From a virus (lineage: Duplodnaviria; Caudoviricetes): DNA of 58,117 bases. Below, one piece after another: positions 3,523 through 56,350 of the stretch. How positions within the stretch are numbered: the first letter of the stretch is position 1; the number at the start of each line of letters is the position of its first letter. The position numbers and the translations under genes were made by a program. Location of the stretch: positions 1-58,117 of IMG/VR virus record IMGVR_UViG_3300027007_000030, one strand, 5' to 3'. The notes beneath the pieces are model-generated. The model did not search any database, was not told where the DNA came from, and worked only from the letters and a program-made list of their open reading frames with translations.

Positions 3523-3533
3523 GATGCCACCAG
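3523..3533 (+). repeat. Dispersed 11-mer GATGCCACCAG (first of at least 16 copies)
   Basis: + strand: 3523, 9425, 16048, 23818, 31490, 38569, 40246, 45314, 56277. - strand: 13173, 18545, 19600, 25749, 41918, 45415, 54895. Confidence 0.9.
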
Positions 3534-3547
3534 CAACGGATTAACAC

Positions 3548-4186
3548 ATGGAAGACTGTCCAATCGACAACTACGACCAGATGACCGTCAGCGAAGTTGG
3601 GTCGGCTATCGAGCCATACACCAACGGGCTCGAGCAACTCTCCGACTCCGACCTCGTCGAGCGACTCGAACTGGTCACAGCGGTACTGGAATACGAACGC
3701 GCCCACAAAGACCGGAAGACGGCCAAGTCTTCTGTGAGCGAAGTCCGTGACGCCCTCGTCGCCGAGGCGCGACCACGCGGCCTGCTGACCCCGGATGAAG
3801 AAGCCGAGACTGAGAGCGACAACGACGATGACGACCCGGTCGACGACGAAGGCGACGAGAACGATGTGGCTACTGACCCTGATGATGGCGAAGATCGTGG
3901 GGATGGGGATGATCCTGAGCGCGACGCTTCTGAAGACGAGGATGAAGCAGAGACTGCTGAAGTAGCCCCCTCCTCGGGCCCGATGCAACAGCGTGACAAC
4001 GAGACGGCTGATGCATCGTTCACTGGGGCGGATCGTCGACAGCGCGTCCTCGTGCGAAACCACCTGAAAGAATCGAGGAACGTTGCTGGCCACTCGTTCG
4101 AGGCCGGTGAAGTCAAAGAGATCGTCCTCGACGACAAACTCCGATCGTCAATCCGACGCAACCAACTCCAGGTGGTGCGAGGGTAA
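3548..4186 (+). CDS. Hypothetical protein, paralogue of 3009-3515
   Basis: IDNYDQMTVSEV...HKDRKT, an acidic linker, then VLVRNH...AGHSF...QLQVV. Confidence 0.65.
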   Translation: MEDCPIDNYDQMTVSEVGSAIEPYTNGLEQLSDSDLVERLELVTAVLEYERAHKDRKTAKSSVSEVRDALVAEARPRGLLTPDEEAETESDNDDDDPVDDEGDENDVATDPDDGEDRGDGDDPERDASEDEDEAETAEVAPSSGPMQQRDNETADASFTGADRRQRVLVRNHLKESRNVAGHSFEAGEVKEIVLDDKLRSSIRRNQLQVVRG

Positions 4187-4572
4187 TGGTTCGCAAGAGT
4201 ACCCACGTCTTCAAGGCCGAGATACGCGACTCAGACGACCACTACTCTGACGACGATGGATCGGACCCGGAGTTCAATATCATCCAGGATGACTTTCCCG
4301 CGTCGTGGACATCGATGGACGCGATCAGAGTGTATGTCCGAGACGACCACAACCAGGCGATAGACGTCGACGTGGAACACACTGGACCAGGAGATACAGA
4401 GTACGAGGCGGTGTCGAGTAACAAGACCATCTCGATCGAGTCCGGGAAAGATGGTGGAACAGCATACCTGGACGGACCGGTTGGGAACATGCGGTTCCGG
4501 TTCTACGGGATCGCATCGGCACCAACAGAAGGGTCGATCACGGTGACAGTTCTCGGACTCGGTCGGGAGTAA
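4186..4572 (+). CDS. Hypothetical virion protein
   Basis: TAATG overlap with the previous stop; acidic and beta-rich. Confidence 0.6.
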   Translation: MVRKSTHVFKAEIRDSDDHYSDDDGSDPEFNIIQDDFPASWTSMDAIRVYVRDDHNQAIDVDVEHTGPGDTEYEAVSSNKTISIESGKDGGTAYLDGPVGNMRFRFYGIASAPTEGSITVTVLGLGRE

Positions 4573-4574
4573 TC

Positions 4575-4973
4575 ATGGTCGTCGAAGTGCGTGACGTCAG
4601 GACGGCGCTGAACGAGATCGACGAGGACGCCATTTCGAACGCGGTGATCACACAGAAGATTGGACAGGCCAAAGCCATCGTCGACGACCACGGAATCGAT
4701 GAGTCAGAAGCCCAGTACGACTACGCAGTGATCCAGACAGCGGCATACCTGTCGTTCACAGCCAGTCCGCCGATGGAACAGAAACGAGCACTCGACGCCG
4801 AAGCACACTGGAACGTCACCTCGTACCTGGAGAACCTGAAATGGCAAATGGACCTCGCTCTGGAATCCGCTGGCGGCGCTACTGGTGGCACCTCGGCGGC
4901 TCTCATCGACTCGACGGATAGCATCTACGACGACGTGACGAGCGACACCGACGACACGCAGTTCTCGCGATGA
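4575..4973 (+). CDS. Head-tail adaptor (neck) protein
   Basis: Helical 132 aa protein (V..VR..L...IS...I...I..A...V pattern) in the neck-gene position. Confidence 0.6.
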   Translation: MVVEVRDVRTALNEIDEDAISNAVITQKIGQAKAIVDDHGIDESEAQYDYAVIQTAAYLSFTASPPMEQKRALDAEAHWNVTSYLENLKWQMDLALESAGGATGGTSAALIDSTDSIYDDVTSDTDDTQFSR

Positions 4974-5062
4974 TGTGTGAGGCGGCGTTCGCTGTCGGGA
5001 TCTGGGCGATCGTGCTGTGTGTCGTCGTCCTGTTTACATGGATAGTGCTCGCAGATCGATAG
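4970..5062 (+). CDS. Small single-pass membrane peptide (30 aa)
   Basis: Manual translation MMCEAAFAVGIWAIVLCVVVLFTWIVLADR; ATGA overlap with the upstream stop. Confidence 0.4.
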   Translation: MMCEAAFAVGIWAIVLCVVVLFTWIVLADR

Positions 5063-5106
5063 CGTCACCAAACCTGGTATCAAGTACGTGAGACATACCG
5101 ATACCC

Positions 5107-5541
5107 ATGGCGAGTGAAGTCGTCGATATCAACAGAATCCCCCAGCTCATTCTGGCGCTTGACGAGGCCCAGGAGGAGTACCTCGAACACATGGGGAAAG
5201 CGATTCTCAAGCAGATCGACATGGGGTTCGAGAAGGGAACTGACCCCCTCGGGCGGACGTGGGAGCCTCTCGACCCCGAAACGGTCGCGAGAAAGGGTCA
5301 CGACGACATCCTGATCGAATCCGGCGACCTTCGTGACTCGTTCGTCTACGAGGTCGACGAGACTGAGAACGCCGTCGCAATCGGGTCCAACTCCCCGCTC
5401 ATCGACTTCCACGAGTTTGGGACTGCTGATATTCCCCGGCGCCCGATCCTTCAGCCAGCGTCGATCTGGGCGGAGGAAAAGCTGATCGTCCCGATGGGAA
5501 AAGACGTGATCGGTGACAAAATCGACAAGGTGACGTTCTGA
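5107..5541 (+). CDS. Virion morphogenesis/tail completion protein (Mu gpG/P2 gpS-like)
   Basis: F...TDP.G..W.PL...T..RK...IL..SG.LR.S and HEFGT..IPRRP motifs typical of this family. Confidence 0.8.
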   Translation: MASEVVDINRIPQLILALDEAQEEYLEHMGKAILKQIDMGFEKGTDPLGRTWEPLDPETVARKGHDDILIESGDLRDSFVYEVDETENAVAIGSNSPLIDFHEFGTADIPRRPILQPASIWAEEKLIVPMGKDVIGDKIDKVTF

Positions 5542-5891
5542 TGCCGGACTTCTCGGCGGCGGACGCGATCATGAACGACGGTCGTTGGCGGGCGGTCGTC
5601 GAAGTCACCCCACGTGGGACCGTCACGAACACCAACGGCTACGCGACGCACACGACCGGTGACCCCGTCGAGATTGAGGCGGTTATCCGACCAGCCACAG
5701 CGACCCGATACGCGAGGATAGCCGAAGGGCTCTCGGACGGCGCGGAATACGTCATGTTCGTTCGACACGACGCAGAGGTTGTATCGGGAGACCAACTCGA
5801 CTACCTGGGAGACACCTTCGAAGTACGAGGGCTCGAGGCTGACCCATACGACGGGCTCAAGATCTTCGAGCTCGTCCAGGAGCTGACCTAA
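5541..5891 (+). CDS. Head-closure (head-tail joining) protein
   Basis: 116 aa beta-rich protein with IEAVIRP...GDQLDYLGDTFEV; synteny. Confidence 0.6.
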   Translation: MPDFSAADAIMNDGRWRAVVEVTPRGTVTNTNGYATHTTGDPVEIEAVIRPATATRYARIAEGLSDGAEYVMFVRHDAEVVSGDQLDYLGDTFEVRGLEADPYDGLKIFELVQELT

Positions 5892-6509
5892 ATGCTGACC
5901 TTCGACGAACAACAGCGCATCTACGACTCCGTGCCGACGTCCTATTCTGTGGGATGGGATGGGGCGACGTACACGTACAGCGATGTCCCCGTCTGGTGGG
6001 ATGGACAGGATCACGATATCGACCTCCCCGAGATCGTCCTTGCCTGGAACGCACAGGGAGTCGAGAAAGACGGACAGCAACCGATGAACCAGGTGCTCGA
6101 CTACGACCTCAAACCGAACGTCCCTGACGTAGACATCACGCGTGGGACTCGCGTGTACGACGAGATGCAGGTTACGTTCGCCGTCGAACACGACCAGAAC
6201 GCCGACGGGGTACCGGCCGAGGTACGCTCGAACGCCTTTGCCGGGGTGTTACTCGACCACTTCCGGTATGCGTTCGATCAGAACGATGATGGGCCGAACG
6301 ATGAGCGACCTGTCCTTGCTCGTGTGATTGGTGAGCCGACGGTCGTACCCGCTGAGATAGACGGGGACCGAGGGCTTCGGGCCGCGTTCCCGGTTCGATT
6401 CCACTACACGGACAGACACGTCGATACCGAACCCACGGTCGAAACCGTCGAGGGTGACGTCGACGTCGACGGCGACTCGAACACGAGCAACCCGTTTTCG
6501 ACCAGCTAA
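5892..6509 (+). CDS. Tail terminator/neck protein
   Basis: Position immediately before the tail sheath gene; size 205 aa. Confidence 0.55.
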   Translation: MLTFDEQQRIYDSVPTSYSVGWDGATYTYSDVPVWWDGQDHDIDLPEIVLAWNAQGVEKDGQQPMNQVLDYDLKPNVPDVDITRGTRVYDEMQVTFAVEHDQNADGVPAEVRSNAFAGVLLDHFRYAFDQNDDGPNDERPVLARVIGEPTVVPAEIDGDRGLRAAFPVRFHYTDRHVDTEPTVETVEGDVDVDGDSNTSNPFSTS

Positions 6510-6518
6510 CGGCGCCCG

Positions 6519-9418: not shown

Positions 9419-9483
9419 CCTCTCGATGCCACCAGCAGCGGTTTGCGCGAACACTTATTACCGTTTACTGTCAATATCTATAT

Positions 9484-13072: not shown

Positions 13073-13615
13073 ATGTCCGTCTCTCCCATGTCGTTCGGGC
13101 CCGGCGGTGGCGGTGGCACGAGCCTCCGCGTTGGCCCGGTGATCCTCGAAAACGCAATCAAGGTCAACGAGTCTGGTGGCATCAACGCGCCGTCCAAGCG
13201 AACTGAGGAGGGGTTCGATTGGACCACAAAAGTCCACGCAGAGCGCCGTACGGCCGAGTTCGAGGCTTGGGCCGAACTGGACGACGTCACCTCGATCACG
13301 TCGCTTCGGGACTCAAGCGAACCCATCTCGGTTGCGTTCGACTTCGTGACGATGGGGAAGTGCAAGATAGACGACCTCAATATCGACCACGAGGCCGCAC
13401 ACCCCGAGCACGTCTACGTTCGCATCTCCGTCAGCGAGGTGTACACGCCGAGTACAGAGACGGCGATTCTTCGTGTATCGTCGTCCGATGGGTCGGTCCG
13501 GTCGTCAGGCCCCGAACTATCGGACCCCTCACTCGCCCGCCCGGAGGAGCGCAGAACGATCGGTGGGAGTGGGTCTGCGATCGACGACGTACTCGGCTGG
13601 CTGGGGTTCGACTGA
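13073..13615 (+). CDS. Baseplate tube-initiator-like protein
   Basis: Follows the tape measure gene; PSKRTEEGFDWTTKVH motif typical of myovirus post-TMP proteins. Confidence 0.6.
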   Translation: MSVSPMSFGPGGGGGTSLRVGPVILENAIKVNESGGINAPSKRTEEGFDWTTKVHAERRTAEFEAWAELDDVTSITSLRDSSEPISVAFDFVTMGKCKIDDLNIDHEAAHPEHVYVRISVSEVYTPSTETAILRVSSSDGSVRSSGPELSDPSLARPEERRTIGGSGSAIDDVLGWLGFD

Positions 13616-15993: not shown

Positions 15994-16064
15994 AATAATA
16001 GATACTTTTACAGTCGTAGTAGTGTAATAGTATCAGACCGCGCACTGGATGCCACCAGAAACGT

Positions 16065-18477: not shown

Positions 18478-19032
18478 ATGACAATGTCCGAAAACAACAG
18501 AGAAGTAGACGTTGACCTGACCGGCGACGAGGAGCCGGACGCTGCTGGTGGCATCGAGTTGGTCGAGGCTGATGACCTCGCTGACCCCGAGTTCGACGCC
18601 GTCGCTGAGGGGAAAGAGGAGGCCAAGCGCGTTCTCAACGCGGTCGGTGGAGATAGCGAGTACGACCGTGCAACGAGCGCGCTTGTGCAGAAACAGCAGA
18701 GCGTCGAGTCGATGTCCCAGCAGTACGAGACGGCGATTCGTAACATCTCGTCGATGGAGCAGCGAGTAGACGGGCTGGACCTCACGATCAGCCGACTTGA
18801 GGATGTCGACGATGAGACGACCGTCTTCCAGCAACTGGAGGGTGGCGTGATCATCGAGGTCGTCGACGACGACACCGAGGGCGTCAAAGAGAGTCTGGAG
18901 ACCGCACGCGAACAGCTAACCGAACAGATAGAAGACCTGCGCGGACAGTCCGAGGCGCTCGAACGCGGGGTGCAGAAGAACCACGCCGCGATCCAGTACC
19001 TCGAGATGTACCGCGACATGAACGAAGAATAG
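18478..19032 (+). CDS. Prefoldin beta-subunit-like protein
   Basis: Coiled coil, then LEDVDDETTVFQQLEGGVIIE hairpin, then coiled coil, as in archaeal prefoldin beta. Confidence 0.65.
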   Translation: MTMSENNREVDVDLTGDEEPDAAGGIELVEADDLADPEFDAVAEGKEEAKRVLNAVGGDSEYDRATSALVQKQQSVESMSQQYETAIRNISSMEQRVDGLDLTISRLEDVDDETTVFQQLEGGVIIEVVDDDTEGVKESLETAREQLTEQIEDLRGQSEALERGVQKNHAAIQYLEMYRDMNEE

Positions 19033-19058: not shown

Positions 19059-20012
19059 ATGGCCGACGCAATTACACTGCAATCCTGGACCTGGACCGAT
19101 TCCGGCACCGAGCCCACGCAAGGTGACGAGAGCTACGCGGCCGGCGAACAGCCGATCGCGGAATACGACAACTGGGCGATGTGGGCGGTGACGACCGACG
19201 TCGACGCCCTGAACGCCGAGCTCGGTGAACACGTCGATAACCACGAGGCCGGCGGCCAGGACGAGATCAACTTGGACGGCCTGAACATCGGCTCAGCCGG
19301 TCAACTCGCCGAAGCTGCTGGCGATGTCGCTATTGAGACGACGGGTGGGACGACCGTTGTAGGGGTCGACACGAGTGCCGCCGACTGGACGACCTTCCCC
19401 GACATCAACGACGCGTTCACTCTCAAGCAGGACATGATACTCGGTGGCGGTCGGACAATCCAGATGAGCGCAGACTCGGGAGAACAGACGCTCGTAGACA
19501 TGTCTGTGACATCCTCGCCGGTAAATGGGTCCGAACAGTCGTACCTGATGGCTCTCGATGGGTCGTCGTACCTGAAAGCCTACGCTGAAGCCGACGGGTC
19601 TGGTGGCATCACGAATACACGGCTCGAATCCCACGTCGACCTACTGGTCGCGACCGGGAACGACCTCACACTCGGCGCTGACCTGGTCGCAGACGACGGC
19701 GAAGTCATCTGGGACGAATCGGCCGGCCACCTCGATCAGGACAGGCTGGAGAACGACAGTCTCACGATCAACGGCGGGAACGCGATCTCTGCGGGTGCGG
19801 TATCACTCGGCGGGTCGGTGACGGTCGGCGTCGAATCCAACTCGATCCAGACAGACGAGCTCGACCTCAGCATCTCGCCGACGTGGACCGGGATGCACAC
19901 GTTCAACGGCGGGGTCACGATGGGCGGCACGCTCGACCTGAACGGGAACGCCCTGGAAGGGACGGACGGCGTCGTCCTCCCGGTTGGGACAGACAAGTAC
20001 GTCACCCAGTAA
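19059..20012 (+). CDS. Tail fibre protein
   Basis: N-terminal W.DSGTEP....Y..GEQP.AEYDNW baseplate-anchor-like motif; Gly/Asp/Thr-rich; PTWTG.HTF segment; position after the baseplate genes. Confidence 0.7.
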   Translation: MADAITLQSWTWTDSGTEPTQGDESYAAGEQPIAEYDNWAMWAVTTDVDALNAELGEHVDNHEAGGQDEINLDGLNIGSAGQLAEAAGDVAIETTGGTTVVGVDTSAADWTTFPDINDAFTLKQDMILGGGRTIQMSADSGEQTLVDMSVTSSPVNGSEQSYLMALDGSSYLKAYAEADGSGGITNTRLESHVDLLVATGNDLTLGADLVADDGEVIWDESAGHLDQDRLENDSLTINGGNAISAGAVSLGGSVTVGVESNSIQTDELDLSISPTWTGMHTFNGGVTMGGTLDLNGNALEGTDGVVLPVGTDKYVTQ

Positions 20013-23747: not shown

Positions 23748-24154
23748 TCGACCACCTACGACCGATCGACCCCATCGAGACGGCCCTCCCTGACGACTGT
23801 ATCGACCCGACCACATCGATGCCACCAGAAACGGTTGAGCCGCCGCGTGAGACGATACTCGTCGATGACAACGTCTCTGTCGAGGTCAGGGTCAAACACG
23901 ACTACAACTGGATGCACGTCGATGTGCCCCGGTTTGAGGGGTGTGATAGCCGCGAGGCGATCTGGACGACTGTCTGGTTTGCCCGAGCAATCGGTGTCCC
24001 AGGAACGTGGAAAGAACAGTTGCGAATCGTCGTCGATGACAACGAACTGGAAGCGTACCGTCTGGGTGCGTTGTATCGATATGCGGAGTTCCCACTGCGT
24101 GAACGCGAGACGAACTACGCCGAGTACGGTGAGAACCCAGAGTACGACACATGA
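23744..24154 (+). CDS. Hypothetical protein
   Basis: ATGA-coupled, acidic ORF. Confidence 0.55.
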   Translation: MIDHLRPIDPIETALPDDCIDPTTSMPPETVEPPRETILVDDNVSVEVRVKHDYNWMHVDVPRFEGCDSREAIWTTVWFARAIGVPGTWKEQLRIVVDDNELEAYRLGALYRYAEFPLRERETNYAEYGENPEYDT

Positions 24155-25372: not shown

Positions 25373-25807
25373 ATGAACGGTGAGTTCGAGCCGTCGACGA
25401 GACGGAGAGACACCTCCTGGGTGCAGGGGGAGTTGGCAACCGCGTTCGAGAACTTCCCGACTGGCGGCCTCCAGCGTCTCTCGCTGGACTCGCGCTACTA
25501 CCTGACGACACCGGAGGACTTCGATCACATCGTAGCGGAAGATGCGCTCTCACACCGATACTACCGACGGGGGAAGTTCGACTGTGAAAACTTCGCGTTT
25601 GCGTTCAAGAGCATCTGTGACGGTCGATATGGACTGAACAGTGTTGGTGTTCTTCTCGACTACCGGACTCGTGACACCTACAACGTGGTCGTCTACGAGG
25701 AGGGTGGCGTCGACGTGTTCGACCCGGACGCCAGCGAGCTCATCGTTGCTGGTGGCATCGGCATGGAGTCGGCATACAAGATCGACCTCGGTGTGATCAT
25801 TTTATGA
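25373..25807 (+). CDS. Papain/transglutaminase-like (agglutinin C-terminal-like) protein
   Basis: FDCENFAFAF...GLNSVG...TYNVVV...FDP pattern. Confidence 0.5.
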   Translation: MNGEFEPSTRRRDTSWVQGELATAFENFPTGGLQRLSLDSRYYLTTPEDFDHIVAEDALSHRYYRRGKFDCENFAFAFKSICDGRYGLNSVGVLLDYRTRDTYNVVVYEEGGVDVFDPDASELIVAGGIGMESAYKIDLGVIIL

Positions 25808-31483: not shown

Positions 31484-31548
31484 CACCTGGATGCCACCAG
31501 CAGCGTCAGAAGACCACCCGTAGCCCGGGTTACCAGCCACGCAATCGA

Positions 31549-33534: not shown

Positions 33535-34695
33535 ATGAGTATCGCCAGTGACGAAGACTTAGAGGTCAGTGTGCCGCTCTATATCGAGCTGTTCAAGACG
33601 CGAGACGACTGCTTTGCTATGCAGCGTCCAGACGGAGCGTACAGCCCGATACACAAAGAGTTCGGCGAGAAGGAGGTGAATCAGCACGTCTCGGGAGAGC
33701 GAACGTTCGGCCAGTACCTCGTCAAACCGGTCAAGAACACCGTTCGGTTCGCCGCGATCGATAACGACATCGATGACGATTCGGACGCCCCGCTCGAAAA
33801 CGCACTTGCAGCGGCCGTCCTGGAGAAGAAGCGCGCGATCAACTGGGGACTCCGTCCGAACCAAGTGTGGATAGAGTTCTCTGGCCGACGAGGCTATCAC
33901 ACGTGGTTCTTTTTCGATCCACCGGTACAGGCTGCTCTCGCCAAGCAGTTCCTCGAACGACTGGTCGGCGGAAACGAAGGTGAGAACAGAATGTCCGTCG
34001 CCATCGATGGTGGGCACCACGAGGTGTTTCCCAAGCAGACGGCACTGATAGAGGGTGAGTACGGCAACCTGATCAAAACACCGTTCGGATTCCACCAGAA
34101 GACAGGCAACCGAATGCTGTTCGTCGACGATGACGGTACCCCTGTCGACGACCAGAACGCGATCCTCCGGGCGGCGCTTCGTAATCGCATCGAGCCAGAC
34201 GTTGTTGGTGGCATCCTGGAGGAGTTCGGTGATGATACGGAGGAGCTCGTCGCCAAATCGAAAGCAGATGCAGCTAATCGGGGCCAACGGATCGAAGACG
34301 TCGTCGACTCCGCGCTCGACATACGCCCGTGTATCGAGCGGGCACTCCGCGGAGAGGCGACCACCCCCGATGATCAGCGTGGTCAACTACGGGGTGTCAC
34401 TGGGCACCAGATGAGACTGGCGGCTGCGACGGAGTTGCTGAACAACGGCGTCTCAGTCGACGACGCGGTCGAGTATTTCAGTCACTTCGAGAACTTCGAC
34501 GAGCAGATCACGAGAGAGAAGCTGGAGGAGATCAAGCGTCTCGGATACAAACCGTGGCGATGCGAGACGCTGCGCGATAAGTGTGGCGCGTACGTCGATG
34601 GATGTGCGTGCCCAAAGACGTCGGAAATCGACCCGGTTCGCTCGATGGAGCTGAACCACGAACGATATAGCGACAAATGGAGACACAATGAGTAA
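33535..34695 (+). CDS. Archaeo-eukaryotic primase with PriL-CTD-like Cys domain
   Basis: AAIDND, EFSGRRGYH, GNLIKTPFG.H.KTG; C-terminal RPCI...H..R...FDEQIT...YKPWRCETL..KC..C. Confidence 0.8.
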   Translation: MSIASDEDLEVSVPLYIELFKTRDDCFAMQRPDGAYSPIHKEFGEKEVNQHVSGERTFGQYLVKPVKNTVRFAAIDNDIDDDSDAPLENALAAAVLEKKRAINWGLRPNQVWIEFSGRRGYHTWFFFDPPVQAALAKQFLERLVGGNEGENRMSVAIDGGHHEVFPKQTALIEGEYGNLIKTPFGFHQKTGNRMLFVDDDGTPVDDQNAILRAALRNRIEPDVVGGILEEFGDDTEELVAKSKADAANRGQRIEDVVDSALDIRPCIERALRGEATTPDDQRGQLRGVTGHQMRLAAATELLNNGVSVDDAVEYFSHFENFDEQITREKLEEIKRLGYKPWRCETLRDKCGAYVDGCACPKTSEIDPVRSMELNHERYSDKWRHNE

Positions 34696-35709: not shown

Positions 35710-38634
35710 ATGAGTAAGAACGAAACCGAAGCAGACGTTGGTCCCGAGGGCGTGGAGGACGCCCCGGGCGGTTCGATGCTTGACACCATCGAGCCAGTAG
35801 ATGGAGAGTTGGGACCAGCCCAGCCGGAACCCGCGCCGGAGTTTCAGAAGGCTCGCCACGAGGTGGGCCAGAAGAACCTTCAGGCCGCCGATGAAGGGCA
35901 CGCGCTCAACATCGCGTCGGGTTCAACGGGCTCGATCAAACAGAAAGTCGACGATGAGGTCGTTCTCGACTATCTGTCGGACAAGATCTACGGCGGTCCC
36001 GATTCCACACTTCGCGAGTATCTCGCGAACGCAGAAACCGCTGTCATCCGCGGCGGTGAAGAAGAACTGAAGAACGAAGCGGGGTTCACGGATGACGACT
36101 TCTACGTGGTCGACGACGAGCACCCGGAGTACGACCCCGCCAAGTCAGACGACGAGCAGCCAACGCGGCGACTCTACCCGAGTGAGATCATCGAGCTTGC
36201 CCGGGAGCTCACTGGCTTCGAGCCGACCATCGAGATCGAGTGGCACGAGGGCGACAACCTCCTCGTGATCCAGGATAACGGTATCGGCTTCACGCCACGC
36301 GAAGTGACGGACGTGCTGGCGGTCACGGGCCACAGCGGGGTTCGAGACCGAGGCGACGTCTCCGGTCAGTTCGGCATGGGCGTGATGTCAGCCCACAAGA
36401 TGGTCGGCAAAGAAGGCGCGTACACGCTGATCACCCGGACCCGGAGACAGAACGTCCCGGACTGGGCACAGCAATCGTTCGCGGCCTACTGCTACCTGGG
36501 CGGCTACGACCCCATCGAGGGCGGCCTCCCCGAGGGAAGTTACGGGACGCGGTTCGAGCTCCCGATTCAGGAGGACCTCGACGACAACTACGGGTCGCGA
36601 TACTCGGACACGCCCGTGGTCACAGAGTGGGTCGAGAAGTACGCCGAGTGGATGCGGGTGCCGGTCCTGTATCACCACTTCAAGGATGGCGATACGGTCC
36701 ACGACGACGAGTTTGGGGAGCAGGAGTTCACCGATGGATACAACGGTGCGGTCCTCACGATCGACCGCCCGGAGTTCCTCGCCAAGTCCTACCCCAAATC
36801 AAGCAACGAGACGCTGTTGCTGTCGATGCCCATCAAGCGGAACTACAGCTACTCGCCGCCGGATGCCCCGTGGAGCGTGGACATCCGACTTCGGAACGAG
36901 GGCGGCATCGTGGTCGAGGGGCCGAACCACGGGCTCATGCCGGTCGACGATGCCGAGTACGACCGGATGGACGCAGAGCGACGCGAGAAGTTCGTCCGGA
37001 AGTCTGAGTTGGAAGACACAGACGTGACGCTCCCGGAACCGACGGCGTCACGTGACGAGCTACAGAAGAACGAGACGTTCTGGAAATGGATCGGCGCTGA
37101 GTTCGACTCGCTCTACAAGTCCGAGATCGCGCGGTTCATCGACCTGGTCGACGACATCGACGACCTGGAGAAGCTCGCGGTCGACGACCCGAACGGATTC
37201 AGCTTCCTGATGGTGGGGCTGAAGAACATCAAGCACTACGCCATCGACGACGCAGCGGACCTTCAGGAAGAACTGGAGAAGTCCCTCGACGCGACCAAGA
37301 GCGAGGAGCTGTGCGAGCAACTTCTGGTCCTCCTGGGAAGCGTACAGCTGGCCCCGCGTGGCCAGTCCGGTGTCTCTCGCAAGCGCAACAGGAAGGCGGA
37401 GAAGACGTGGCGTATCTTCCGTGACGCGGCCGAGGGCGGCGACGTCTACATGGGCGTCAACATCAACCAGAAGCGCGCCGAGGTTGCCTGGGAGACGCAC
37501 GATAACAACCAGGTTGCCCGCGTGGACAAAGCCGCCGAGTACCCGACGTTCGAGAAGTTGGGCTGGAAGATGCTCAAAGACGTCCCGATCACCAAGAGCT
37601 CGAAAGACGCGAGCAACTACAAGATCCCGGACAAGGTCACGCAGAGTCAGGCCAAATCCAACGCTGGACTCGCGGCACCAGATCGCGAGCTCACGGTCCG
37701 GCGAGATTCGGGACAGGACAACACGAAGAACTACGACGTGGAGACGATTGAGCGAGAGCTCAGCGCGTACCACAAGTACGGGAAGGGAGACGGGCTCTAT
37801 CTGGGCTACAAGAAGTATGCCACGGAGCTTGTCCTGTTCCCCAGTTCCACCGACCGGAACATGACGGACTGGTACAAAGTAATCAAGCCCCACGAGGGCC
37901 GGGCCTGCGCCACCTGCATCAACGGCGTGTACGACTACCTCAAGAGCGTTCCCGGAGTCATGCACATAGACGACCTAATCTCAGACGCGGCCGACGTACA
38001 GCTCACGACCAGCGAAGGCGACATGACTGTCGAAGACGCTGGCGACGAACTACTGATCCACCTGGTGACCGACGAGTACCTGGACGAGTTCCGGGACCCT
38101 GCGATCATGACCCGGCTGGCCGAGTGGCTCCACGACTATTTCCAGGAGGACGACCGCTGGGATGACTTCAGCTGGGACTACAGCAAGGACATGTACCCGG
38201 ACAAGTTCATCTACGCACCCGTGGACCGCGATGCGTGGCGCCGTATCCAGCCCGGATCGTTCGACCACGACTTCGTGGTGATCGGCGGCGATCTCCGAGC
38301 TCGTAACTGCGGGTCGGACCACTACCACGAGTTCCAGTCGGACGCGATGATCTACACGGTCGGCCGACTGTACGAGTGGGACGAGGACACGCCGGAAGTC
38401 GTCTCGCTCCAGTCGCTGGCGGTGAGCCGCGACCCCGAACAGGCGTTCGCACTGATCAACTCGTTGGCGATGCTCCACGACAACGGCGTCAAGCCCGCGT
38501 CCGAGCAGAACGGCCAGGCTGTCAAACTCGCTGTCGAACAGCAGGCGAATCTCAGCGACACCGCACTGGATGCCACCAGCGACGACAGCCAGGACGTCCC
38601 CGAACACGAGGCGCTGACCGACGGCGGCGAGTGA
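35710..38634 (+). CDS. Large GHKL (Hsp90/rIIA-like) ATPase
   Basis: LSDKIY...LREYLANA, IQDNGIGF, GQFGMG, GTRFELP Bergerat-fold motifs. Confidence 0.8.
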   Translation: MSKNETEADVGPEGVEDAPGGSMLDTIEPVDGELGPAQPEPAPEFQKARHEVGQKNLQAADEGHALNIASGSTGSIKQKVDDEVVLDYLSDKIYGGPDSTLREYLANAETAVIRGGEEELKNEAGFTDDDFYVVDDEHPEYDPAKSDDEQPTRRLYPSEIIELARELTGFEPTIEIEWHEGDNLLVIQDNGIGFTPREVTDVLAVTGHSGVRDRGDVSGQFGMGVMSAHKMVGKEGAYTLITRTRRQNVPDWAQQSFAAYCYLGGYDPIEGGLPEGSYGTRFELPIQEDLDDNYGSRYSDTPVVTEWVEKYAEWMRVPVLYHHFKDGDTVHDDEFGEQEFTDGYNGAVLTIDRPEFLAKSYPKSSNETLLLSMPIKRNYSYSPPDAPWSVDIRLRNEGGIVVEGPNHGLMPVDDAEYDRMDAERREKFVRKSELEDTDVTLPEPTASRDELQKNETFWKWIGAEFDSLYKSEIARFIDLVDDIDDLEKLAVDDPNGFSFLMVGLKNIKHYAIDDAADLQEELEKSLDATKSEELCEQLLVLLGSVQLAPRGQSGVSRKRNRKAEKTWRIFRDAAEGGDVYMGVNINQKRAEVAWETHDNNQVARVDKAAEYPTFEKLGWKMLKDVPITKSSKDASNYKIPDKVTQSQAKSNAGLAAPDRELTVRRDSGQDNTKNYDVETIERELSAYHKYGKGDGLYLGYKKYATELVLFPSSTDRNMTDWYKVIKPHEGRACATCINGVYDYLKSVPGVMHIDDLISDAADVQLTTSEGDMTVEDAGDELLIHLVTDEYLDEFRDPAIMTRLAEWLHDYFQEDDRWDDFSWDYSKDMYPDKFIYAPVDRDAWRRIQPGSFDHDFVVIGGDLRARNCGSDHYHEFQSDAMIYTVGRLYEWDEDTPEVVSLQSLAVSRDPEQAFALINSLAMLHDNGVKPASEQNGQAVKLAVEQQANLSDTALDATSDDSQDVPEHEALTDGGE

Positions 38635-40133: not shown

Positions 40134-40299
40134 CTCCGTCCCACGCGGTCCCCAACGCGTTCCTTTTGTTAGATTACTCAATCTCCCCATAGTCACATCT
40201 CAATCGTCTCTCCGACGATCCTACGGCCTCCTGTGACCGCCTCTCGATGCCACCAGAAACGGGTCCGGATTTCCGCATTGACGCACCGCCCGCGTGCCA

Positions 40300-41779: not shown

Positions 41780-41906
41780 GTGCTGGGTCTGCGGCGAGAC
41801 GGCGACTCACCGCGAGACGAAGCCACCGTACGAGTATCTCTGCTCGGACCACGCAATCAGCATCGACGCGAACCCCATCAAGGACATGCCACCAGACGCG
41901 AAGTAG
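41772..41906 (+). CDS. Zinc-finger microprotein (44 aa)
   Basis: MPECWVCG...YLCSDH. Confidence 0.5.
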   Translation: MPECWVCGETATHRETKPPYEYLCSDHAISIDANPIKDMPPDAK

Positions 41907-42063
41907 ACATGGCGTTGCTGGTGGCATCGAGCTGGTTTTGGTAACTGTTCTGACCTATAAGATAACAGAAAACTTCATTACCCTAAACCGCCTACATAAC
42001 ACTATCCAACCTTCCGTGGTTGGAGTGTCGCGTAATGAACTATAAGCAAATGGAGGAGAACCG

Positions 42064-45128: not shown

Positions 45129-45334
45129 CTAACGATAGACGAGCAGTAAGGAGAGTATTAGTTAGGACAGTGCGCTCCCCGGCCCGACAGTCACACATAC
45201 AATCATTGATACAATAGACCATGATCTGTGCGGAAAGCGGGTACCTCGGACGAATAGGAGAATAGCTTATGGTTCTCGATTTGTTATATGTTGGTAATGC
45301 AGAACGCGCACTCGATGCCACCAGAAACGACCGC

Positions 45335-45396: not shown

Positions 45397-45447
45397 CACT
45401 GCTGGCACACGCTACTGGTGGCATCGGGTTCATCGGGGGGAATACGG

Positions 45448-52945: not shown

Positions 52946-53592
52946 CGCGCGGACAGAAGACCAGCTACACGGGTAAGGACACGTCAGTCTCGATCACGCA
53001 GACACAGGCCGCTGACCAGTCCCAGCTCACGATCACGAACGACCGCCTTCGCGGCGAGTGGTCGCCCCGGGCGATCGTCGAGCGACGCTACAAGAAGATG
53101 AAAGGCCGTGGTGCCACGACGGCGTTCCTTCCCATCAGCCCGCGTAGTGCGCTTCGTGGGATATCGGAGGAGTACGGAGAGGCGTTCATCATCGGCTACG
53201 CGCTGGTCAGGCCGAAAGTCAAAACGCGTACAACCCGTGACGACAAGGACGCTGTTTTCGAGCAGTTCGAGGACAAGGACGAAGCGTACGTCTGGAAGAA
53301 GCGCCGGCCGACGTACATCCCGAAGGACCGCCTCACGACCCGGTTCATCATCGAGGGCTACGGCTACAACTGGAACCAACCGACCGACTCGAAGTGGGGC
53401 GGGATGTTCTACGTCCTCGATGCCAACAGTATGCTCTCGGCAAGAGATGGGTTCCGCGTCGTCGCTGTCGCCGAAGTGCCACCAGGAACGGAGTTTGCGT
53501 ACCCGTTCAAGAGCTCTGCTCGACTGAAGGAACGGCTCGAAGACGACGCTGTCGACTACACGTTCGACCCCGACTTCGAGAGGGTCGCATGA
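52942..53592 (+). CDS. Hypothetical protein
   Basis: ATGA-coupled at both ends. Confidence 0.55.
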   Translation: MTRGQKTSYTGKDTSVSITQTQAADQSQLTITNDRLRGEWSPRAIVERRYKKMKGRGATTAFLPISPRSALRGISEEYGEAFIIGYALVRPKVKTRTTRDDKDAVFEQFEDKDEAYVWKKRRPTYIPKDRLTTRFIIEGYGYNWNQPTDSKWGGMFYVLDANSMLSARDGFRVVAVAEVPPGTEFAYPFKSSARLKERLEDDAVDYTFDPDFERVA

Positions 53593-54101
53593 GTCAGACA
53601 GACTACGTGGAGATCACGAAAGACGCGTTCGATGAGTTCATCGAGACCCTCCCACTCAAGTTCGAAGAACGCGATTGGAACTGGACGCAGGAGGCCGTCT
53701 ACGACTGCGAAGCGAAGTACATCCACAACGTGTACGTGTTCCGCATCTGGTCGAGCGTCGACGTGAGAGACGGGTACGGACGTAAGAAGGGCGAGGATGC
53801 CATCCGCGTCCAGGCGCTCGTGAAAGAGGACCACAAGGGCCCTGGCCAGTGGAAACCAGCCGTCCATCACAGTCAACTTCCCGACGACGTCGGGTCGCAC
53901 ATCAAGCGAACGAAGGGCTGGCGCGACCGAGTGAAGCGCCACCTCGTCGCGATGGAGGCGTTCCTCGGCGGTGAGCTGAACAAGACCTGTATCTGGTGCG
54001 ACCGCCCGATGGTCGTCAGAGAGCGCAAGTCCGACGGTAAGGAGTTCTGGGGTTGTTCAGGGTTCCCCGACTGTCGACACAGCGAAGACCTGGAGGAGTA
54101 G
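53589..54101 (+). CDS. Protein with C-terminal topoisomerase-type C4 zinc finger
   Basis: CIWCDRPMVVR....GKEFWGCSGFPDCR. Confidence 0.7.
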   Translation: MSQTDYVEITKDAFDEFIETLPLKFEERDWNWTQEAVYDCEAKYIHNVYVFRIWSSVDVRDGYGRKKGEDAIRVQALVKEDHKGPGQWKPAVHHSQLPDDVGSHIKRTKGWRDRVKRHLVAMEAFLGGELNKTCIWCDRPMVVRERKSDGKEFWGCSGFPDCRHSEDLEE

Positions 54102-54103
54102 CC

Positions 54104-54328
54104 ATGACAGAAGAAGCACGAAGACAGATGAGAGCAGATGAAGTAGAGAACCACGACGCGTACGTCGCGATGGGAGAAGTGAGTCACGACCCGATCTTCG
54201 ACGTTGACGCAGTCCTGGAAGCCAAAGAAGTGCTGGAGAGCGGAGAGACTGACTGGGAGTACCTCGGCGGAGAGGAGCGACACGGAACTGTTGTCCAGGC
54301 ACTCCAACTGCTCGAACAGGTGGTCTGA
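54104..54328 (+). CDS. Hypothetical protein
   Basis: GGAGGAG SD; acidic. Confidence 0.5.
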   Translation: MTEEARRQMRADEVENHDAYVAMGEVSHDPIFDVDAVLEAKEVLESGETDWEYLGGEERHGTVVQALQLLEQVV

Positions 54329-54660
54329 TGCCCGGGCCGATCAGCTTCAGTCACCCACTCGCCTGGGACTTCCTGTACACACACGGCTACGTCGCAACGT
54401 TCCGAAAACGACGTCGTACGTCTGGTACGTGTGACACGTGGTGTAACCGGGGTCGCGGCGAGGAGAAGGAGTTCGACGTCCACGTCCAGGAGGTCGGCGA
54501 GGTCGACTTCGACAATGGCGGCACCAAGATGCTTCGACACTTCTCGTCGATCAGCGGGATGGAGACGAGTTCCTGTTGGCGACGGGCCATCGAGGAAGTA
54601 AACGGGGAGCTCCCCGAGAGCGGGTGGCTCTACGTCGTCACGAAGGCGACGGAGGAATAG
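54328..54660 (+). CDS. Hypothetical protein (possibly ASCH/PUA-like)
   Basis: ISFS...G.VATFR...SG.....W...WLYVV pattern. Confidence 0.45.
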   Translation: MPGPISFSHPLAWDFLYTHGYVATFRKRRRTSGTCDTWCNRGRGEEKEFDVHVQEVGEVDFDNGGTKMLRHFSSISGMETSSCWRRAIEEVNGELPESGWLYVVTKATEE

Positions 54661-54885
54661 ATGGACGTTCGACCGTGCCCCTGCTACAAGTGCGCTGGTC
54701 CCATCTACGACTACGACAGTAACGGCAATCGCATCATCGTGAACAACGTTCACGGCCGCCTCCAACCCTGCGACACCTGCGGGCAACCGAAGACAGAGTA
54801 CGTCGATCTTGGTCGCAAGGGCTACTACGAGTGCTGGTGGTGTACACGCCGGGCTGGACCAGACGATGCGAGGGCGTTCCCATGA
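54661..54885 (+). CDS. Cys-rich zinc-finger microprotein
   Basis: CYKC, CDTC, CWWC. Confidence 0.55.
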   Translation: MDVRPCPCYKCAGPIYDYDSNGNRIIVNNVHGRLQPCDTCGQPKTEYVDLGRKGYYECWWCTRRAGPDDARAFP

Positions 54886-55424
54886 CTGACGCTGCTGGTG
54901 GCATCCAGTTCGACTTCGCGGAGGTCGTCCCTCGTGATCGGGATGTGTACACGGCGACCGACCACCTGATGAAGCGCGTTCGAATGTCCGGCCGGTTCAT
55001 CACGGAGGAACTCGTCCGCGACCTGATCGCGACCGGCGAGATCAAGGGCAACCGGCCCGGGAAAGGCGGGTGGGTGTTCGAAAAGCAGTACGACGGCGTC
55101 CTGTTCAAGTTGATCTGCGACATCGGCGCGGACCTTGAACCTCGCATCGTCACCGGCGTCTCCGAGATCGTCGACCGAGATGCGGCGCTGGACTCCGACC
55201 GCTGGTCAGAATCGACTGTCCATCAAGTGGAGCTACGGACGGCACTGAGCCGCGATACACACGAGGTGCCCCAGGAGAAGATGCTTACTCTCGAGTGCCT
55301 CACTCCGATAGCGGTGAAAGGCCATCAGGTGATCACCGACGCCGAGTGGGGCCACGTCCGCTGCATCGACTGTGGCCTGGAGACCAGATCGAAAGCCGAG
55401 CTCTCGACGACGGCCTGCAACTGA
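54882..55424 (+). CDS. Hypothetical protein with C-terminal zinc motif
   Basis: TDHLMKRVR.....IT (DUF4258-like start); H...CIDCG...C. Confidence 0.55.
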   Translation: MTDAAGGIQFDFAEVVPRDRDVYTATDHLMKRVRMSGRFITEELVRDLIATGEIKGNRPGKGGWVFEKQYDGVLFKLICDIGADLEPRIVTGVSEIVDRDAALDSDRWSESTVHQVELRTALSRDTHEVPQEKMLTLECLTPIAVKGHQVITDAEWGHVRCIDCGLETRSKAELSTTACN

Positions 55425-55432
55425 TCCCACTG

Positions 55433-56134
55433 ATGAATCGAGAACTTTATACGCCGAGTGGCAACGCCGATGACTGTTCATGCCCGATCCATCGCGATGG
55501 ACAGGCCCCGACCGTCCCACTGGGGATCGAGTTTCATCGTCGAGTGACGATCAGTGAAATCGACAGGGAGACAGCACTCGCGATCTACGAGGCACACCAC
55601 TCGTACTGCAAGACGGTCGCGAAGACGAACATCGTCCACCACGGAATCGAGTTTGACGGCCAGGTAGTCGGCGCCGTCACCTGGCGACAGCCCCTGCTGA
55701 ACGAGCTCCGACTGTGGGTCACTCCCGGTGGCGGCCTCACCCGCGACCCCGACCGGGGCGTAGACTCGTTCAAAGTCTCGGGCGGCGCTGTCGCCGAAGC
55801 CAACCGCATCTGTCTCGGTGTCCCGACGAAGAACCTCGCCTCGTGTGGCTTCGCCCGGTCGATGAACCGCTTCGTCGACGACCACGCATCCCGCCTCGAT
55901 CTCGACTGGTTACTCACGTTCATCCGGGTCGACCACGTTGGGTCGATGCTCCGTGCACTCCTCGACAAAGGGTGGGAGCTCGTTGGTATCAGCGAACCGA
56001 AAGAACCCGGTAACCGGCCGACTGAGGAAATCCATTCATGGGCGAAACAGCGGTGGTTGTGCCCGCTCACGGACTACATGACCCACTTCCCTACCCAACA
56101 AGCACCTCTCGCACGGGTTCACGGGGGTCTATAA
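55433..56134 (+). CDS. Mom-like (GNAT-fold) DNA modification protein
   Basis: A..IYEAHHSY...G.VVGAVTW.QP...EANRICL....KNLAS...LLTF....H.GS..RA...GW layout matches Mu Mom-family proteins. Confidence 0.65.
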   Translation: MNRELYTPSGNADDCSCPIHRDGQAPTVPLGIEFHRRVTISEIDRETALAIYEAHHSYCKTVAKTNIVHHGIEFDGQVVGAVTWRQPLLNELRLWVTPGGGLTRDPDRGVDSFKVSGGAVAEANRICLGVPTKNLASCGFARSMNRFVDDHASRLDLDWLLTFIRVDHVGSMLRALLDKGWELVGISEPKEPGNRPTEEIHSWAKQRWLCPLTDYMTHFPTQQAPLARVHGGL

Positions 56135-56186
56135 GCCTCCTATCGCCCATATTCAGGGGTTTCAGACCCCCATTTTCGGGCGACCC

Positions 56187-56247
56187 CCGGCGACCCCCTT
56201 TCCAGACCCTAACCCTACCCTATACAGTGTGGAAACGGTCCTCCGAG
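56187..56247 (+). repeat. ~60-bp intergenic repeat family, copy D
   Basis: CCGGCGACCCCCTTTCCAGACCCTAACCCTACCC...GGAAACGGTCCTCCGAG. Confidence 0.7.
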
Positions 56248-56350
56248 AGTTTCTGATCCCTGATAACCACGCACTGGATGCCACCAGCAGCGTCTATCAC
56301 GTTTATGTACAGAAAGTGGTATATACTCCAGATGCGATATATCAGACAAG

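Follow-up and report, generated by a model that had tools for sequence, protein, structure and literature searches.

The haloarchaeal virus studied here carries a 16-bp asymmetric site, GATGCCACCAG-NNN-CG, in dozens of places along its genome, and these sites are selected at the DNA level, conserved in position and co-variant between two sister viruses. The window, i.e. the whole 58,117-nt stretch of DNA that was analysed, forms the right-hand 58 kb of a haloarchaeal myovirus of roughly 147 kb that carries an integrase, and we assign a second IMG/VR record (G001) as the left-hand 88.7 kb of the same virus. The two contigs both end inside one gene, with the 3'-open ORF of G001 and the 5'-open ORF of the window matching one set of 333-390-aa proteins in their N- and C-terminal portions, respectively, and leaving a gap of about 18 residues between them. 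They also show the same GC content, a tetranucleotide correlation of r=0.96, common accessory repeats and complementary gene sets. The virus is temperate, as indicated by a tyrosine integrase gene adjoining a tRNA array and by its 'provirus' class in IMG/VR, and its host is a salt-loving archaeon.

A sharply defined word in one provirus

An exact match search on both strands of the window (58 kb) yielded 16 copies of GATGCCACCAG, 9 forward and 7 reverse, reproducing all the coordinates given in the original prediction. This word is the commonest 11-mer of the window by k-mer count; no match at all occurred in any of 100 dinucleotide-preserving shuffles, and 0.06 copies are expected on both strands under a third-order Markov model. 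The word is sharply defined, because only 8 one-mismatch copies exist in the window. With 25 further exact copies in G001, the total reaches 41 in 146.8 kb (about one per 3.5 kb), at almost equal densities in the two halves (0.275 and 0.282 per kb). In neither half is the evenness of the spacing significantly above random (P about 0.13 each). The longest part of G001 without the motif, at 18.0-30.6 kb, is an island of low GC content (0.555 vs 0.597), which carries a methylase/SNF2-PLD gene pair and resembles a recent arrival.

A logo built from the 41 copies defined the site as 16 bp long, in which 13 positions are fixed or almost fixed (high information); position +14 is C in 41/41 copies and +15 is G in 39/41. 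The extended consensus proposed earlier was essentially right, but is refined here to GATGCCACCAG-NNN-CG, preceded by a weaker A/C-rich 5' side, 'CAC(T/A)(T/C)(C/G)'. The word with its flanks is asymmetric, not palindromic, and is GC-rich with no AT-rich column or box. The copies in the window are given below, where exact copies are matches to GATGCCACCAG and gene boundaries are heuristic calls (least sure in G001).

3523..3533, forward: exact copy between genes 2859-3515 and 3548-4186, which are 32 nt apart; begins 7 nt past the stop and ends 14 nt ahead of the next ATG
4882..4892, reverse: one-mismatch copy, GgTGCCACCAG then tagCG, with the 3' CG kept
9425..9435, forward: exact copy, intergenic, 6 nt past the stop codon that closes 9260-9418; 14 nt beyond the 16-mer comes a TTATTA box, and the next ATG stands at 9484
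13173..13183, reverse: exact copy within tail gene 13073-13615, read as S-G-G-I
16048..16058, forward: exact copy in a 177-nt spacer separating two tail genes; a strong palindromic hairpin follows directly 3', then a CTGGTATATA box
18545..18555, reverse: exact copy within gene 18478-19032, peptide DAAGGIELV; 28 nt are identical to a copy in a linker of the G001 ribonucleotide reductase
19600..19610, reverse: exact copy within gene 19059-20012, S-G-G-I frame
23818..23828, forward: exact copy within ORF 23744-24154, 74 nt from its start, peptide SMPPE
25749..25759, reverse: exact copy within gene 25373-25807, 48 nt ahead of the stop, A-G-G-I frame
31490..31500, forward: exact copy, intergenic, 6 nt past the stop codon of gene 29303-31483, which bears an intein; ATG 31549 is the most likely start of the gene on its 3' side (DEDDh-type exonuclease)
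34205..34215, reverse: one-mismatch copy, GATGCCACCAa then caaCG, with the 3' CG kept; a decayed or nascent site
38569..38579, forward: exact copy within the 982-aa GHKL-ATPase gene 35686-38634, 55 nt ahead of its stop, peptide LDATS
40246..40256, forward: exact copy, intergenic, with 39600-40133 on one side and the minus-strand gene 40300-40698 on the other
41885..41895, forward: one-mismatch copy, cATGCCACCAG then acgCG, where a small CxxC ORF ends
41918..41928, reverse: exact copy, intergenic, 138 nt past the ParB-like gene; forms an inverted pair with 41885
45314..45324, forward: exact copy, intergenic, and left-hand member of an inverted pair around a 61-nt conserved element
45415..45425, reverse: exact copy, right arm of the same pair; a glycosyltransferase gene probably begins only after it, with its true GTG start at about 45445
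54895..54905, reverse: exact copy at codons 5-8 (A-G-G-I) of a gene with an ATG start at 54882
56277..56287, forward: exact copy, intergenic, ahead of the exonuclease gene 56351-57199; TATA-like boxes follow the 16-mer at distances of 9 and 25 nt, the nearer being TTTATGTA

Of the two inverted pairs noticed earlier, 45314/45415 is exact, while the partner of 41918 lies at 41885 rather than 41886 and carries one mismatch.

Placement, conservation and selection on the DNA

By heuristic gene calls, the copies show a clear preference for intergenic DNA, in which 9/16 copies of the window are located (13% non-coding DNA, P=5e-5) as well as 15/25 copies of G001 (31% or less non-coding, P=0.003). Overall, 24 of the 41 copies are intergenic and 17 (41%) lie within genes, 9 of the latter being antisense. 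The intergenic copies are mostly co-oriented with transcription (18/24, P=0.023, with 6/24 reversed), and the figure for all copies is 26/41 (P=0.12), leaving 15/41 (37%) reversed. This orientation bias toward the direction of transcription is real but not strict, and under our conservative classification the difference between intergenic and coding copies is not significant (Fisher P=0.10). As had been noticed, many copies sit just after stop codons: half of the forward intergenic ones (9/18) start 6-20 nt past the upstream stop of the heuristic gene calls. Four forward copies have a terminator-like hairpin on their 3' side.

The copies within genes, among which the embedded peptides AAGGI, SMPPE and LDATS were indeed seen, occupy tolerant or variable protein segments, and the reverse coding copies all use one reading frame (9/9). 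In the tail gene 13073-13615, the site encodes S-G-G-I, where the relatives phiH, phiCh1 and ChaoS9 have SGGW, SGAW or QGGW; a Trp conserved in the three relatives has thus been swapped for Ile, meaning that the site at 13173 was made in place. Both copies in the reductase of G001 fall in unconserved linkers.

A sister virus from the same community (G413) is syntenic with this one, at about 80% nucleotide identity and with a PolB protein 93% identical. Its genome contains 1 exact copy of GATGCCACCAG compared with 24 copies of CTACCACCAG. In the ortholog comparison, which covered the 25 positions of the G001 half (8/25 not alignable), the site is kept at 17/17 alignable positions, each time as TACCACCAG instead of GATGCCACCAG (TA for TG). 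Such a parallel change at many sites is predicted by co-evolution with one trans-acting factor. The replaced Trp at 13173, the variable-linker placement and the 17/17 retention in the sister virus together bear out the earlier statement that selection is on the DNA. The general notion of a protein-binding site spaced every few kb is also well supported, with the binding itself being predicted from sequence.

Viruses phiH, ChaoS9 and phiCh1 and those like HVTV-1 lack the motif, and no enrichment was seen elsewhere among the matches listed for the genomes and metagenome scanned, the 401 unrelated prokaryote genomes containing at most 3 copies each. Among the matches listed, the provirus contig (154,791 bp) is the only multi-hit metagenome contig. 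Its 66.3 kb upstream of the provirus contain 0 copies, compared with 6 inside the provirus, among the 80 loci listed with names (18 further metagenome loci without contig names stand outside this count). The original prediction had named a similar density in shuffled or host DNA as evidence against it, and neither the 100 shuffles, the 401 unrelated prokaryote genomes nor, among the matches listed, the provirus flank revealed one.

A candidate regulator and the alternatives

Quite possibly, although we put it forward tentatively, these are sites for a virus-specific two-part DNA-binding regulator that acts like the stoperators of mycobacteriophages. GATGCCACCAG-NNN-CG would then be a docking site on double-stranded DNA for one lineage-specific, sequence-specific factor, which would read it in two parts, i.e. 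a constant half (CCACCAG-NNN-CG) and a specificity half (GATG in this virus and nnTA in the sister virus). A regulator or repressor seated on many sites could hold back or shape how the long, one-directional array of genes is transcribed, for instance in silencing during the integrated state and in immunity, and the one-letter switch in the sister virus would represent a changed immunity or regulatory specificity. Accepting this reading, we infer that a protein binds the sites, that the virus encodes it and that it affects transcription. Among the options of the original prediction, a regulator site is the best-fitting candidate. The reverse orientation of 15 copies, including 6 intergenic ones, argues against the stoperator reading, and the costly reverse sites in structural genes suit a need for DNA coverage no less than they suit gene regulation. 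When the window and G001 were scanned with Pfam, PHROG and NCBIfam, no cognate repressor or binding protein was recognised, although such scans may miss a distant or non-homologous binder; generic binder candidates from them are a PadR-like protein (32442-32882), numerous small proteins of the zinc-ribbon type and, below the Pfam cutoff, a 61-aa protein of G001 that resembles Ogr/Delta.

It is rather unlikely that the word serves as a signal of self-identity or coverage, marking the virus's own DNA for a translocating machine. Present every few kb on either strand, it could attenuate a viral or host helicase-nuclease, as Chi does, or confer a packaging or transfer preference in the manner of uptake sequences. 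The almost equal density in both halves is consistent with such a role, as is the coincidence of the largest motif-free stretch of G001 with an island that looks newly arrived, and a sister virus would need a mark of its own. Moreover, the copies of the tightly packed tail module were created within genes, at a cost, in tolerant frames or segments; Chi and uptake sequences likewise arise in genes, in tolerant frames or segments. The virus as a whole uses the word in both orientations. Common to Chi, DUS/USS and the present site are over-representation as oriented words on both strands, origin by point mutation, location in tolerated frames or variable segments and a frequency of one per few kb. 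However, this role does not predict the intergenic preference or the orientation bias of the intergenic copies, the evenness of the spacing does not differ significantly from chance, and the provirus flank of 66.3 kb has no host copies among the matches listed. Known Chi sites are 5-8 nt long, far shorter than the 16-bp word. Whereas Chi, DUS and USS (5-12 nt) are a property of the whole host chromosome, the 16-bp site belongs to one virus lineage, differs in the sister virus and is concentrated behind stops.

A doubtful third explanation is that the sites bind a virus-encoded transcription activator, or are promoter-proximal elements for temporal-class control, like the HF2 repeats or the Ogr/Delta system of P2/P4. 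Some copies do lie close to promoter-like boxes: TTATTA follows the copy at 9425 and TTTATGTA that at 56277 at the distances listed above, and 45314, 16048 and 41918 sit 17-39 nt downstream of AT-rich boxes. In addition, the 61-aa Ogr/Delta-like zinc-finger ORF ends 11 nt ahead of the G001 copy at 4557. Nevertheless, the distance to TATA boxes or start codons is not fixed, the logo lacks an AT-rich box, the 30-nt gene-junction copies leave too little room for a promoter, 17/41 copies are within genes (9 antisense), and the Ogr/Delta match is the sub-threshold one. The class I/II intergenic repeats of that haloarchaeal tailed virus are described as about a dozen AT-rich, strictly intergenic elements of 29-58 bp with a TATA box and a start site, which carry promoters, are conserved in position among related viruses and are thought to bind virus regulators (PMC8707807). 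Our site shares the conserved positions, but is a GC-rich 16-mer without TATA that also occurs in genes and in both orientations; a better counterpart of the HF2 repeats is found in the CTGGTATATA boxes that this virus carries.

Improbable, too, are centromere-like or KorB-like sites, at which a ParB-family clamp would be loaded for partition or global silencing. Dispersed ParB-family sites are known in plasmid RK2 (those of KorB) and prophage N15, and this virus does encode a protein with a ParB N-terminal domain (40748-41779), with the imperfect inverted pair 41885/41918 lying 138 nt downstream of its gene, which is weak support. On the other hand, dimers bind the palindromic parS and OB sites through an HTH, whereas our site is asymmetric, and only residues about 114-156 of the ParB-like protein match ParB models, with no DNA-binding HTH family detected. 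In the Atlas it lies closest to clusters of viral 'ParB N-terminal domain / ParB-like nuclease' proteins, its homologues in phiH and phiCh1 (31% identity) occur without the motif, and apart from the one imperfect pair the remaining 39 copies are scattered across 147 kb rather than clustered near parB. The ParB/parS idea raised earlier is thus not specifically supported.

Slightly less credible still is an RNA-level element, in which the forward word would act in 3' untranslated or intercistronic transcript as a signal for processing, stability or translation coupling. The position of half of the forward intergenic copies shortly past a stop, sometimes ahead of a hairpin and U-run, is compatible with this, and at 3523 and G001 4557 the AUG of the word opens 6-codon mini-ORFs ending beside the next start. 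However, 15 reverse copies are also selected, one of them costing a conserved Trp, the CUGG/CCAG mini-hairpin is broken in 21/41 copies (C at -1), Rfam gave no match, and the concerted one-letter switch in the sister virus is hard to square with a host RNA-processing signal.

Finally, it is very improbable that the sites are traces or targets left by a mobile element or used by a site-specific recombinase at gene-cassette boundaries: the word does lie at gene boundaries, site, hairpin and promoter-like box fill the 177-nt tail spacer where ChaoS9 has 11 nt, and some breaks between two co-occurring strains fall near copies (54907 and 56304), but the coding copies came from point changes rather than insertion, the positions are stable between the sister viruses, and a site-specific recombinase would scramble a genome with 41 sites in both orientations, which makes the recombination option of the earlier reading unlikely as well. 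The only apparently exact joint (45329 to 50594) has the same sequence as the 16048 locus of the window itself and most probably represents one contig aligned in two pieces.

Comparison with stoperators

Returning to the stoperator-like regulator, the system is possibly the first genome-wide silencing or immunity code of this kind in an archaeal virus, with a two-part reader, about 40 sites and a single-base flip of specificity, or else a new viral 'self' mark read by a DNA translocase. If so, the TG-to-TA flip at every retained site would be a natural experiment in the co-evolution of a recognition code and its targets.

Several features set the present sites apart from the stoperators of Cluster A mycobacteriophages (L5, Bxb1 and TipsytheTRex). 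The host here is an archaeon, so that RNA polymerase and promoters differ; the site has 16 bp instead of 13, with 37% of the copies reversed and 41% within genes; and no homologous repressor was recognised, the likeness resting on sequence features. Reversed stoperators lose function (PMC9283540), whereas strict orientation is not observed here (18/24 intergenic copies and 26/41 overall are co-oriented). The likeness is nonetheless extensive. Stoperators are described as asymmetric conserved 13-mers in more than 20 copies across a temperate genome, which are found in promoters and short intergenic spaces, follow the direction of transcription and occur as variant words in related phages (PMC9283540); the asymmetric word of this virus likewise exceeds 20 copies, prefers short intergenic spaces and the direction of transcription, and has a variant in the sister virus. 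The stoperator repressor is described there as a monomer with two DNA-binding domains, an arrangement that lets new immune specificities evolve (PMC9283540).

A 16-bp word in a provirus recovered as two records

The 11-mer GATGCCACCAG proved to be the most frequent 11-mer of the window, and the 16 copies of the original prediction (nine forward, seven reverse) were recovered exactly. No copy appeared in any of 100 dinucleotide-preserving shuffles of the window, a third-order Markov model gave an expectation of 0.06, and just 8 one-mismatch copies were found. Aligning the copies with their flanks showed that the conserved unit exceeds the 11-mer core. Among the 41 copies of the window and G001, an 88,656-bp IMG/VR record, position +14 was C in 41/41 and +15 was G in 39/41, positions +11 to +13 read M-A-R, and the 5' flank showed a weaker A/C-rich block (CAC, then T/A, T/C and C/G). 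The site is an asymmetric 16-mer, GATGCCACCAG-NNN-CG. A CTGG...CCAG mini-hairpin was rejected because it is not conserved, position -1 being C in 21/41 copies.

G001 was found by an IMG/VR scan with the extended pattern, which returned 16 stretches, seven of them within G001 and nine singletons; it contains 25 exact copies of the 11-mer. The window record itself is classed in IMG/VR as a 'provirus' fragment. Its genes, nearly all on the + strand, encode head and contractile-tail proteins (cement, sheath, tape measure, baseplate J and others), and the tail module is syntenic with those of the haloarchaeal myoviruses ChaoS9, phiH and phiCh1 (30-53% protein identity). The window further encodes a primase, a RecA-like ATPase, an intein-bearing protein, exonucleases, a PadR-like regulator, a ParB N-terminal-domain protein, two GT4 glycosyltransferases and a dCTP deaminase. 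At the nucleotide level the two records share short repeats only, and their one shared protein is a glycosyltransferase (34% identical). Their GC contents are 0.595 and 0.591, the correlation of their tetranucleotide signatures is r=0.96, compared with 0.81-0.89 for the phiH group, and both carry a palindromic hairpin element, a 61-nt element and a CTGGTATATA box, all three absent from the phiH group. Their genes complement each other: an integrase, nine tRNAs, ligase, PolB, terminase, ThyX, DpdA and ribonucleotide reductase are found in G001, which has no recognisable capsid or tail genes, and the window has capsid and tail genes without a terminase.

The two records also split one head-module protein. 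The first, 5'-open ORF of the window (1-528; 175 aa) corresponds to its C-terminal part, and the last, 3'-open ORF of G001 (positions 8433-8656 of its piece L140; 74 aa) to its N-terminal part; full-length homologues (333-390 aa) align both fragments with ~18 residues missing between them. The link rests on these homologues, since Pfam and PHROG scans gave no significant family for either fragment. Three independent contigs end within ~150 nt of the junction. GC content, tetranucleotides, accessory elements, complementary genes and the split ORF together show that the window and G001 belong to one genome, in which the window continues G001 after a gap of ~55 nt to give a provirus of ~147 kb. 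The alternative of two unrelated viruses sharing a host factor was dropped once the split protein was found. In total, the provirus carries 41 copies over ~147 kb, with densities of 0.282 per kb for the G001 half and 0.275 per kb for the window half.

On the far side of G001, a 154,791-bp metagenome contig, 100% identical to it over the six loci compared, shows the integrase preceded by 66.3 kb of other DNA. Window proteins were found on contigs of up to 87,953 bp, which suggests ~30 kb of non-viral flank past the end of the window, itself located exactly at a stop codon. Neither a sheath-protein search nor a scan with the window's last 34 nt yielded close relatives of the window.

Enrichment of the word was not seen elsewhere. 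Neither an exact copy nor a comparable dispersed word was found in the related viruses phiH, ChaoS9 and phiCh1, whose top k-mers are acidic-codon runs, and HCTV-5, HVTV-1 and HCTV-1 had 0 copies. Among 50,697 phage and 72,556 plasmid records, the extended word gave chance-level matches only, none haloarchaeal; among the matches listed for GTDB genome contigs were single, chance-like ones in bacteria. As a chance control, 401 unrelated prokaryote genomes (0.5-2.1 Mb, another phylum) contained a match in 61 cases, with at most three copies each. A metagenome scan gave 98 stretches, and no contig except the one identical to G001 had more than one match; among the 80 named loci of these 98, none lay in its 66.3-kb flank. 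Rfam and tRNA scans of the window gave no match. In the main full text of the literature, the word matched unrelated primers only, and searches on halovirus intergenic motifs turned up no main text describing such a word; the accessible portions of the ChaoS9 and phiH1 papers do not mention one.

Accessory elements and further genes of the provirus (window coordinates unless G001 or the sister-virus record G413 is named)
16065-16101, 27106-27141, 50594-50630; G001 ~2220, 30643, 55658, 65171, 87659: palindrome GTACGTACATATG-(8 nt)-CATATGTACGT, after stop codons
26437-26497, 35459-35519, 45336-45396, 56188-56248, always + strand: 61-nt element (CGGCGAC...AACCCC.ACCC...AACG...TCCGGG); ~9 weaker copies in G001
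6669, 9960, 16136, 56317; G001 6554, 7231, 88399; G413 8665, 9340, 89489: AAAACTGGTATATA box
19984-21276: 430-aa His/Asp-rich pentapeptide-type repeat protein (15-nt DNA period)
21316-22809: radical-SAM/SPASM enzyme, best matches cyclophane-forming peptide maturases
45376-47025, 47249-48703; G001 63374-64822, 74588-75817: three paralogous viral GT4 glycosyltransferases and the DpdA-type transglycosylase of G001
29303-31483; G001 55732-58491, 82041-86111: three genes with LAGLIDADG-type inteins (products: a 726-aa protein, the large terminase and ribonucleotide reductase)
40300-40698, - strand: match to Pfam 'Mycobacterium phage L5 gene 82 protein' (E=1.5e-32)
G001 21639-29163 (1639-9163 of its piece L137): Eco57I/N6-methylase (1387 aa) and PLD+SNF2 helicase (1122 aa)

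The palindrome has folding energies of -23 to -30 kcal/mol, with z values of -3.6 to -4.8 in two of its three window copies; a U-run follows it at 16101, and it looks like a terminator or stabiliser hairpin. In the 61-nt element, blocks of sequence are conserved and secondary structure is not; the inverted word pair 45314/45415 brackets one copy. A deletion joint from 45329 to 50594 turned out to be an artefact, its sequence being identical to the window's own 16048 locus. The AAAACTGGTATATA box precedes start codons by ~30 nt (sheath, tape measure, baseplate, exonuclease), is not present in phiH, ChaoS9 or phiCh1, and is likely a promoter class of this virus, comparable with the intergenic repeats of HF2.

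The repeat protein and the radical-SAM enzyme directly follow the baseplate genes, and the former may be a post-translationally cross-linked fibre protein. Structural neighbours of the GT4 proteins include tRNA-queuosine mannosyltransferase; together with DpdA, the dCTP deaminase and a weak Mom-like match in the window, they hint at hypermodified DNA, perhaps with glycosylated 7-deazaguanine. The L5 gene 82-like gene is among the few on the minus strand and is flanked by a copy of the word and the ParB-like gene. The methylase/helicase pair sits in an island of lower GC (0.555), probably a recently acquired restriction- or defence-like module; the island coincides with the longest stretch of G001 without the word, 12.6 kb. 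Over window positions 38001-58000, DNA contigs of two metagenome runs contained this virus and a more abundant strain differing at many positions; ~44261-50623 (glycosyltransferases, ATPase-like protein, phosphodiesterase) was covered at the minor strain's depth only, indicating a strain-specific segment.

Placement of the copies and selection on the DNA

Genes were called with our own GC3-based heuristic, which is weaker in G001; window calls were corrected by eye. On this basis, 24/41 copies in the provirus are intergenic: 9/16 in the window vs 13% non-coding DNA (P=5e-5) and 15/25 in G001 vs at most 31% (P=0.003). The intergenic copies are mostly co-oriented with transcription (18/24, P=0.023), and the coding copies are split into 8 forward and 9 reverse, a contrast that is not significant (Fisher P=0.10); an earlier, liberal assignment (21:6, P=0.015) was not relied on. 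Many copies had been noted just after stop codons, and indeed 9/18 forward intergenic copies start within 20 nt of the upstream stop. A strong palindromic hairpin lies directly 3' of four copies (window 16048; G001 2168, 30603 and 55655). Spacing was not significantly more even than random (P ~0.13 in each half).

Several observations on the coding copies bear out the proposal that selection acts on the DNA. The tail gene that holds reverse copy 13173 is conserved in phiH, phiCh1 and ChaoS9; at the site these relatives have SGGW, SGAW or QGGW before NAP or DAP and this virus has SGGI-NAP, so that the word was created here by replacing a conserved Trp. Both copies in the ribonucleotide reductase of G001 fall in segments unconserved among HCTV-5, HVTV-1 and HCTV-1, and all reverse coding copies (9/9) use the frame giving (A/S)-G-G-I. 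Copy 18545 shares a 28-nt identity with a copy in the reductase linker, indicating that the flanks are shaped too. Homologues of DpdA, at most 33% identical, are too divergent for an assessment of the two copies that this gene contains.

Orthologous sites in a sister virus

A search with the PolB of G001 found G413, an 89,618-bp record classed as 'provirus' whose PolB is 93% identical. Gene order matches that of G001, and alignments covering 61.8 kb show ~70-90% nucleotide identity; a further record, G414, is an identical fragment of G413 and adds no independent data. G413 contains a single exact GATGCCACCAG, at 13029. The dispersed words most frequent in it are CTACCACCAG, with 24 copies, and CACTACCACCAG, with 15, and the same MAR-CG comes after them. 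When the 25 sites of G001 were mapped onto G413, 17 were alignable across the site and 8 were not. All 17 keep CCACCAG-NNN-C(G), with TA for the TG of G001, and the first two letters of the word (GA) are free or AC; some of the sites kept lie within DpdA, the reductase and other genes. Thus, site positions are conserved although the sequences differ by ~20%, and every retained site shows the same parallel change in the specificity half of the word, which is what co-evolution with one trans-acting reader predicts. The sister word CACTACCACCAGCAGCG occurs once in G001, at ~88293-88309 near the right end; this copy and the lone G001-type word in G413 may be leftovers of the switch or cross-talk sites.

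The observation is therefore real and stronger than first reported, with 41 copies in a ~147-kb provirus, conserved positions and a concerted one-letter switch. These results establish a functional, lineage-specific recognition word that acts at the DNA level and is read in two parts; its reader and its purpose are inferred.

Candidate readers and known systems

Proteins of the virus that might read the word include the PadR-like protein (32442-32882), the zinc-ribbon proteins, the ParB-like protein and an Ogr/Delta-like ORF at G001 4360-4545. Alternatively, a translocase or nuclease might read the word as a 'self' signal of the coverage type, which would account for the costly coding copies and the equal density in the two halves and leaves the placement behind stop codons unexplained. 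Activator sites and an RNA element each fit fewer observations, as do the ParB-type and recombination sites of the original prediction. A type I-B CRISPR PAM plus seed was rejected: most copies are directly preceded by CTG, CTC or ATC, and these triplets are not known as haloarchaeal PAMs. Also discarded were an archaeal origin-recognition box, whose CCA..G.AAAC resemblance is limited to the minority AAACG variant, and a phiH-type pac site, which does not resemble the word.

How large temperate archaeal viruses silence or time ~150 kb of genes that run in one direction is, to our knowledge, hardly understood at all. The 16-bp word offers a concrete, directly testable handle, and the sister virus, with one letter changed at at least 17 orthologous sites, a built-in specificity control whose co-variation can identify the reader protein; it also shows a recognition code shifting genome-wide without loss of sites. 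If a common reader is indeed involved, TACCACCAG would be expected in the sister's right-hand part, orthologous to the window's 16 copies. If the word is a nuclease or packaging signal, it would represent a new viral self-recognition system.

Dispersed phage recognition sites are already a known kind, and for an archaeal virus we found no description of such a word. The intergenic repeats of HF2 are described as AT-rich promoters (PMC8707807), for which the CTGGTATATA boxes of this virus, not the word, are the better counterpart. The closest working model for the word is the operator/stoperator system of Cluster A mycobacteriophages. In that system, promoters and short intergenic spaces contain more than 20 asymmetric 13-mers, oriented with transcription; the repressor that binds them is a monomer with two DNA-binding domains, which is said to permit new immune specificities to evolve (PMC9283540). 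Profile scans of the window and G001 recognised no cognate repressor. Unlike strict stoperators, 15/41 copies of the word are reversed and 17/41 lie inside genes. Like stoperator phages, this virus is temperate by its genes and transcribed one way, and its word shares the intergenic and orientation preferences as well as a variant form in a sister virus; if the reader is a repressor, the stoperator principle would extend to Archaea.
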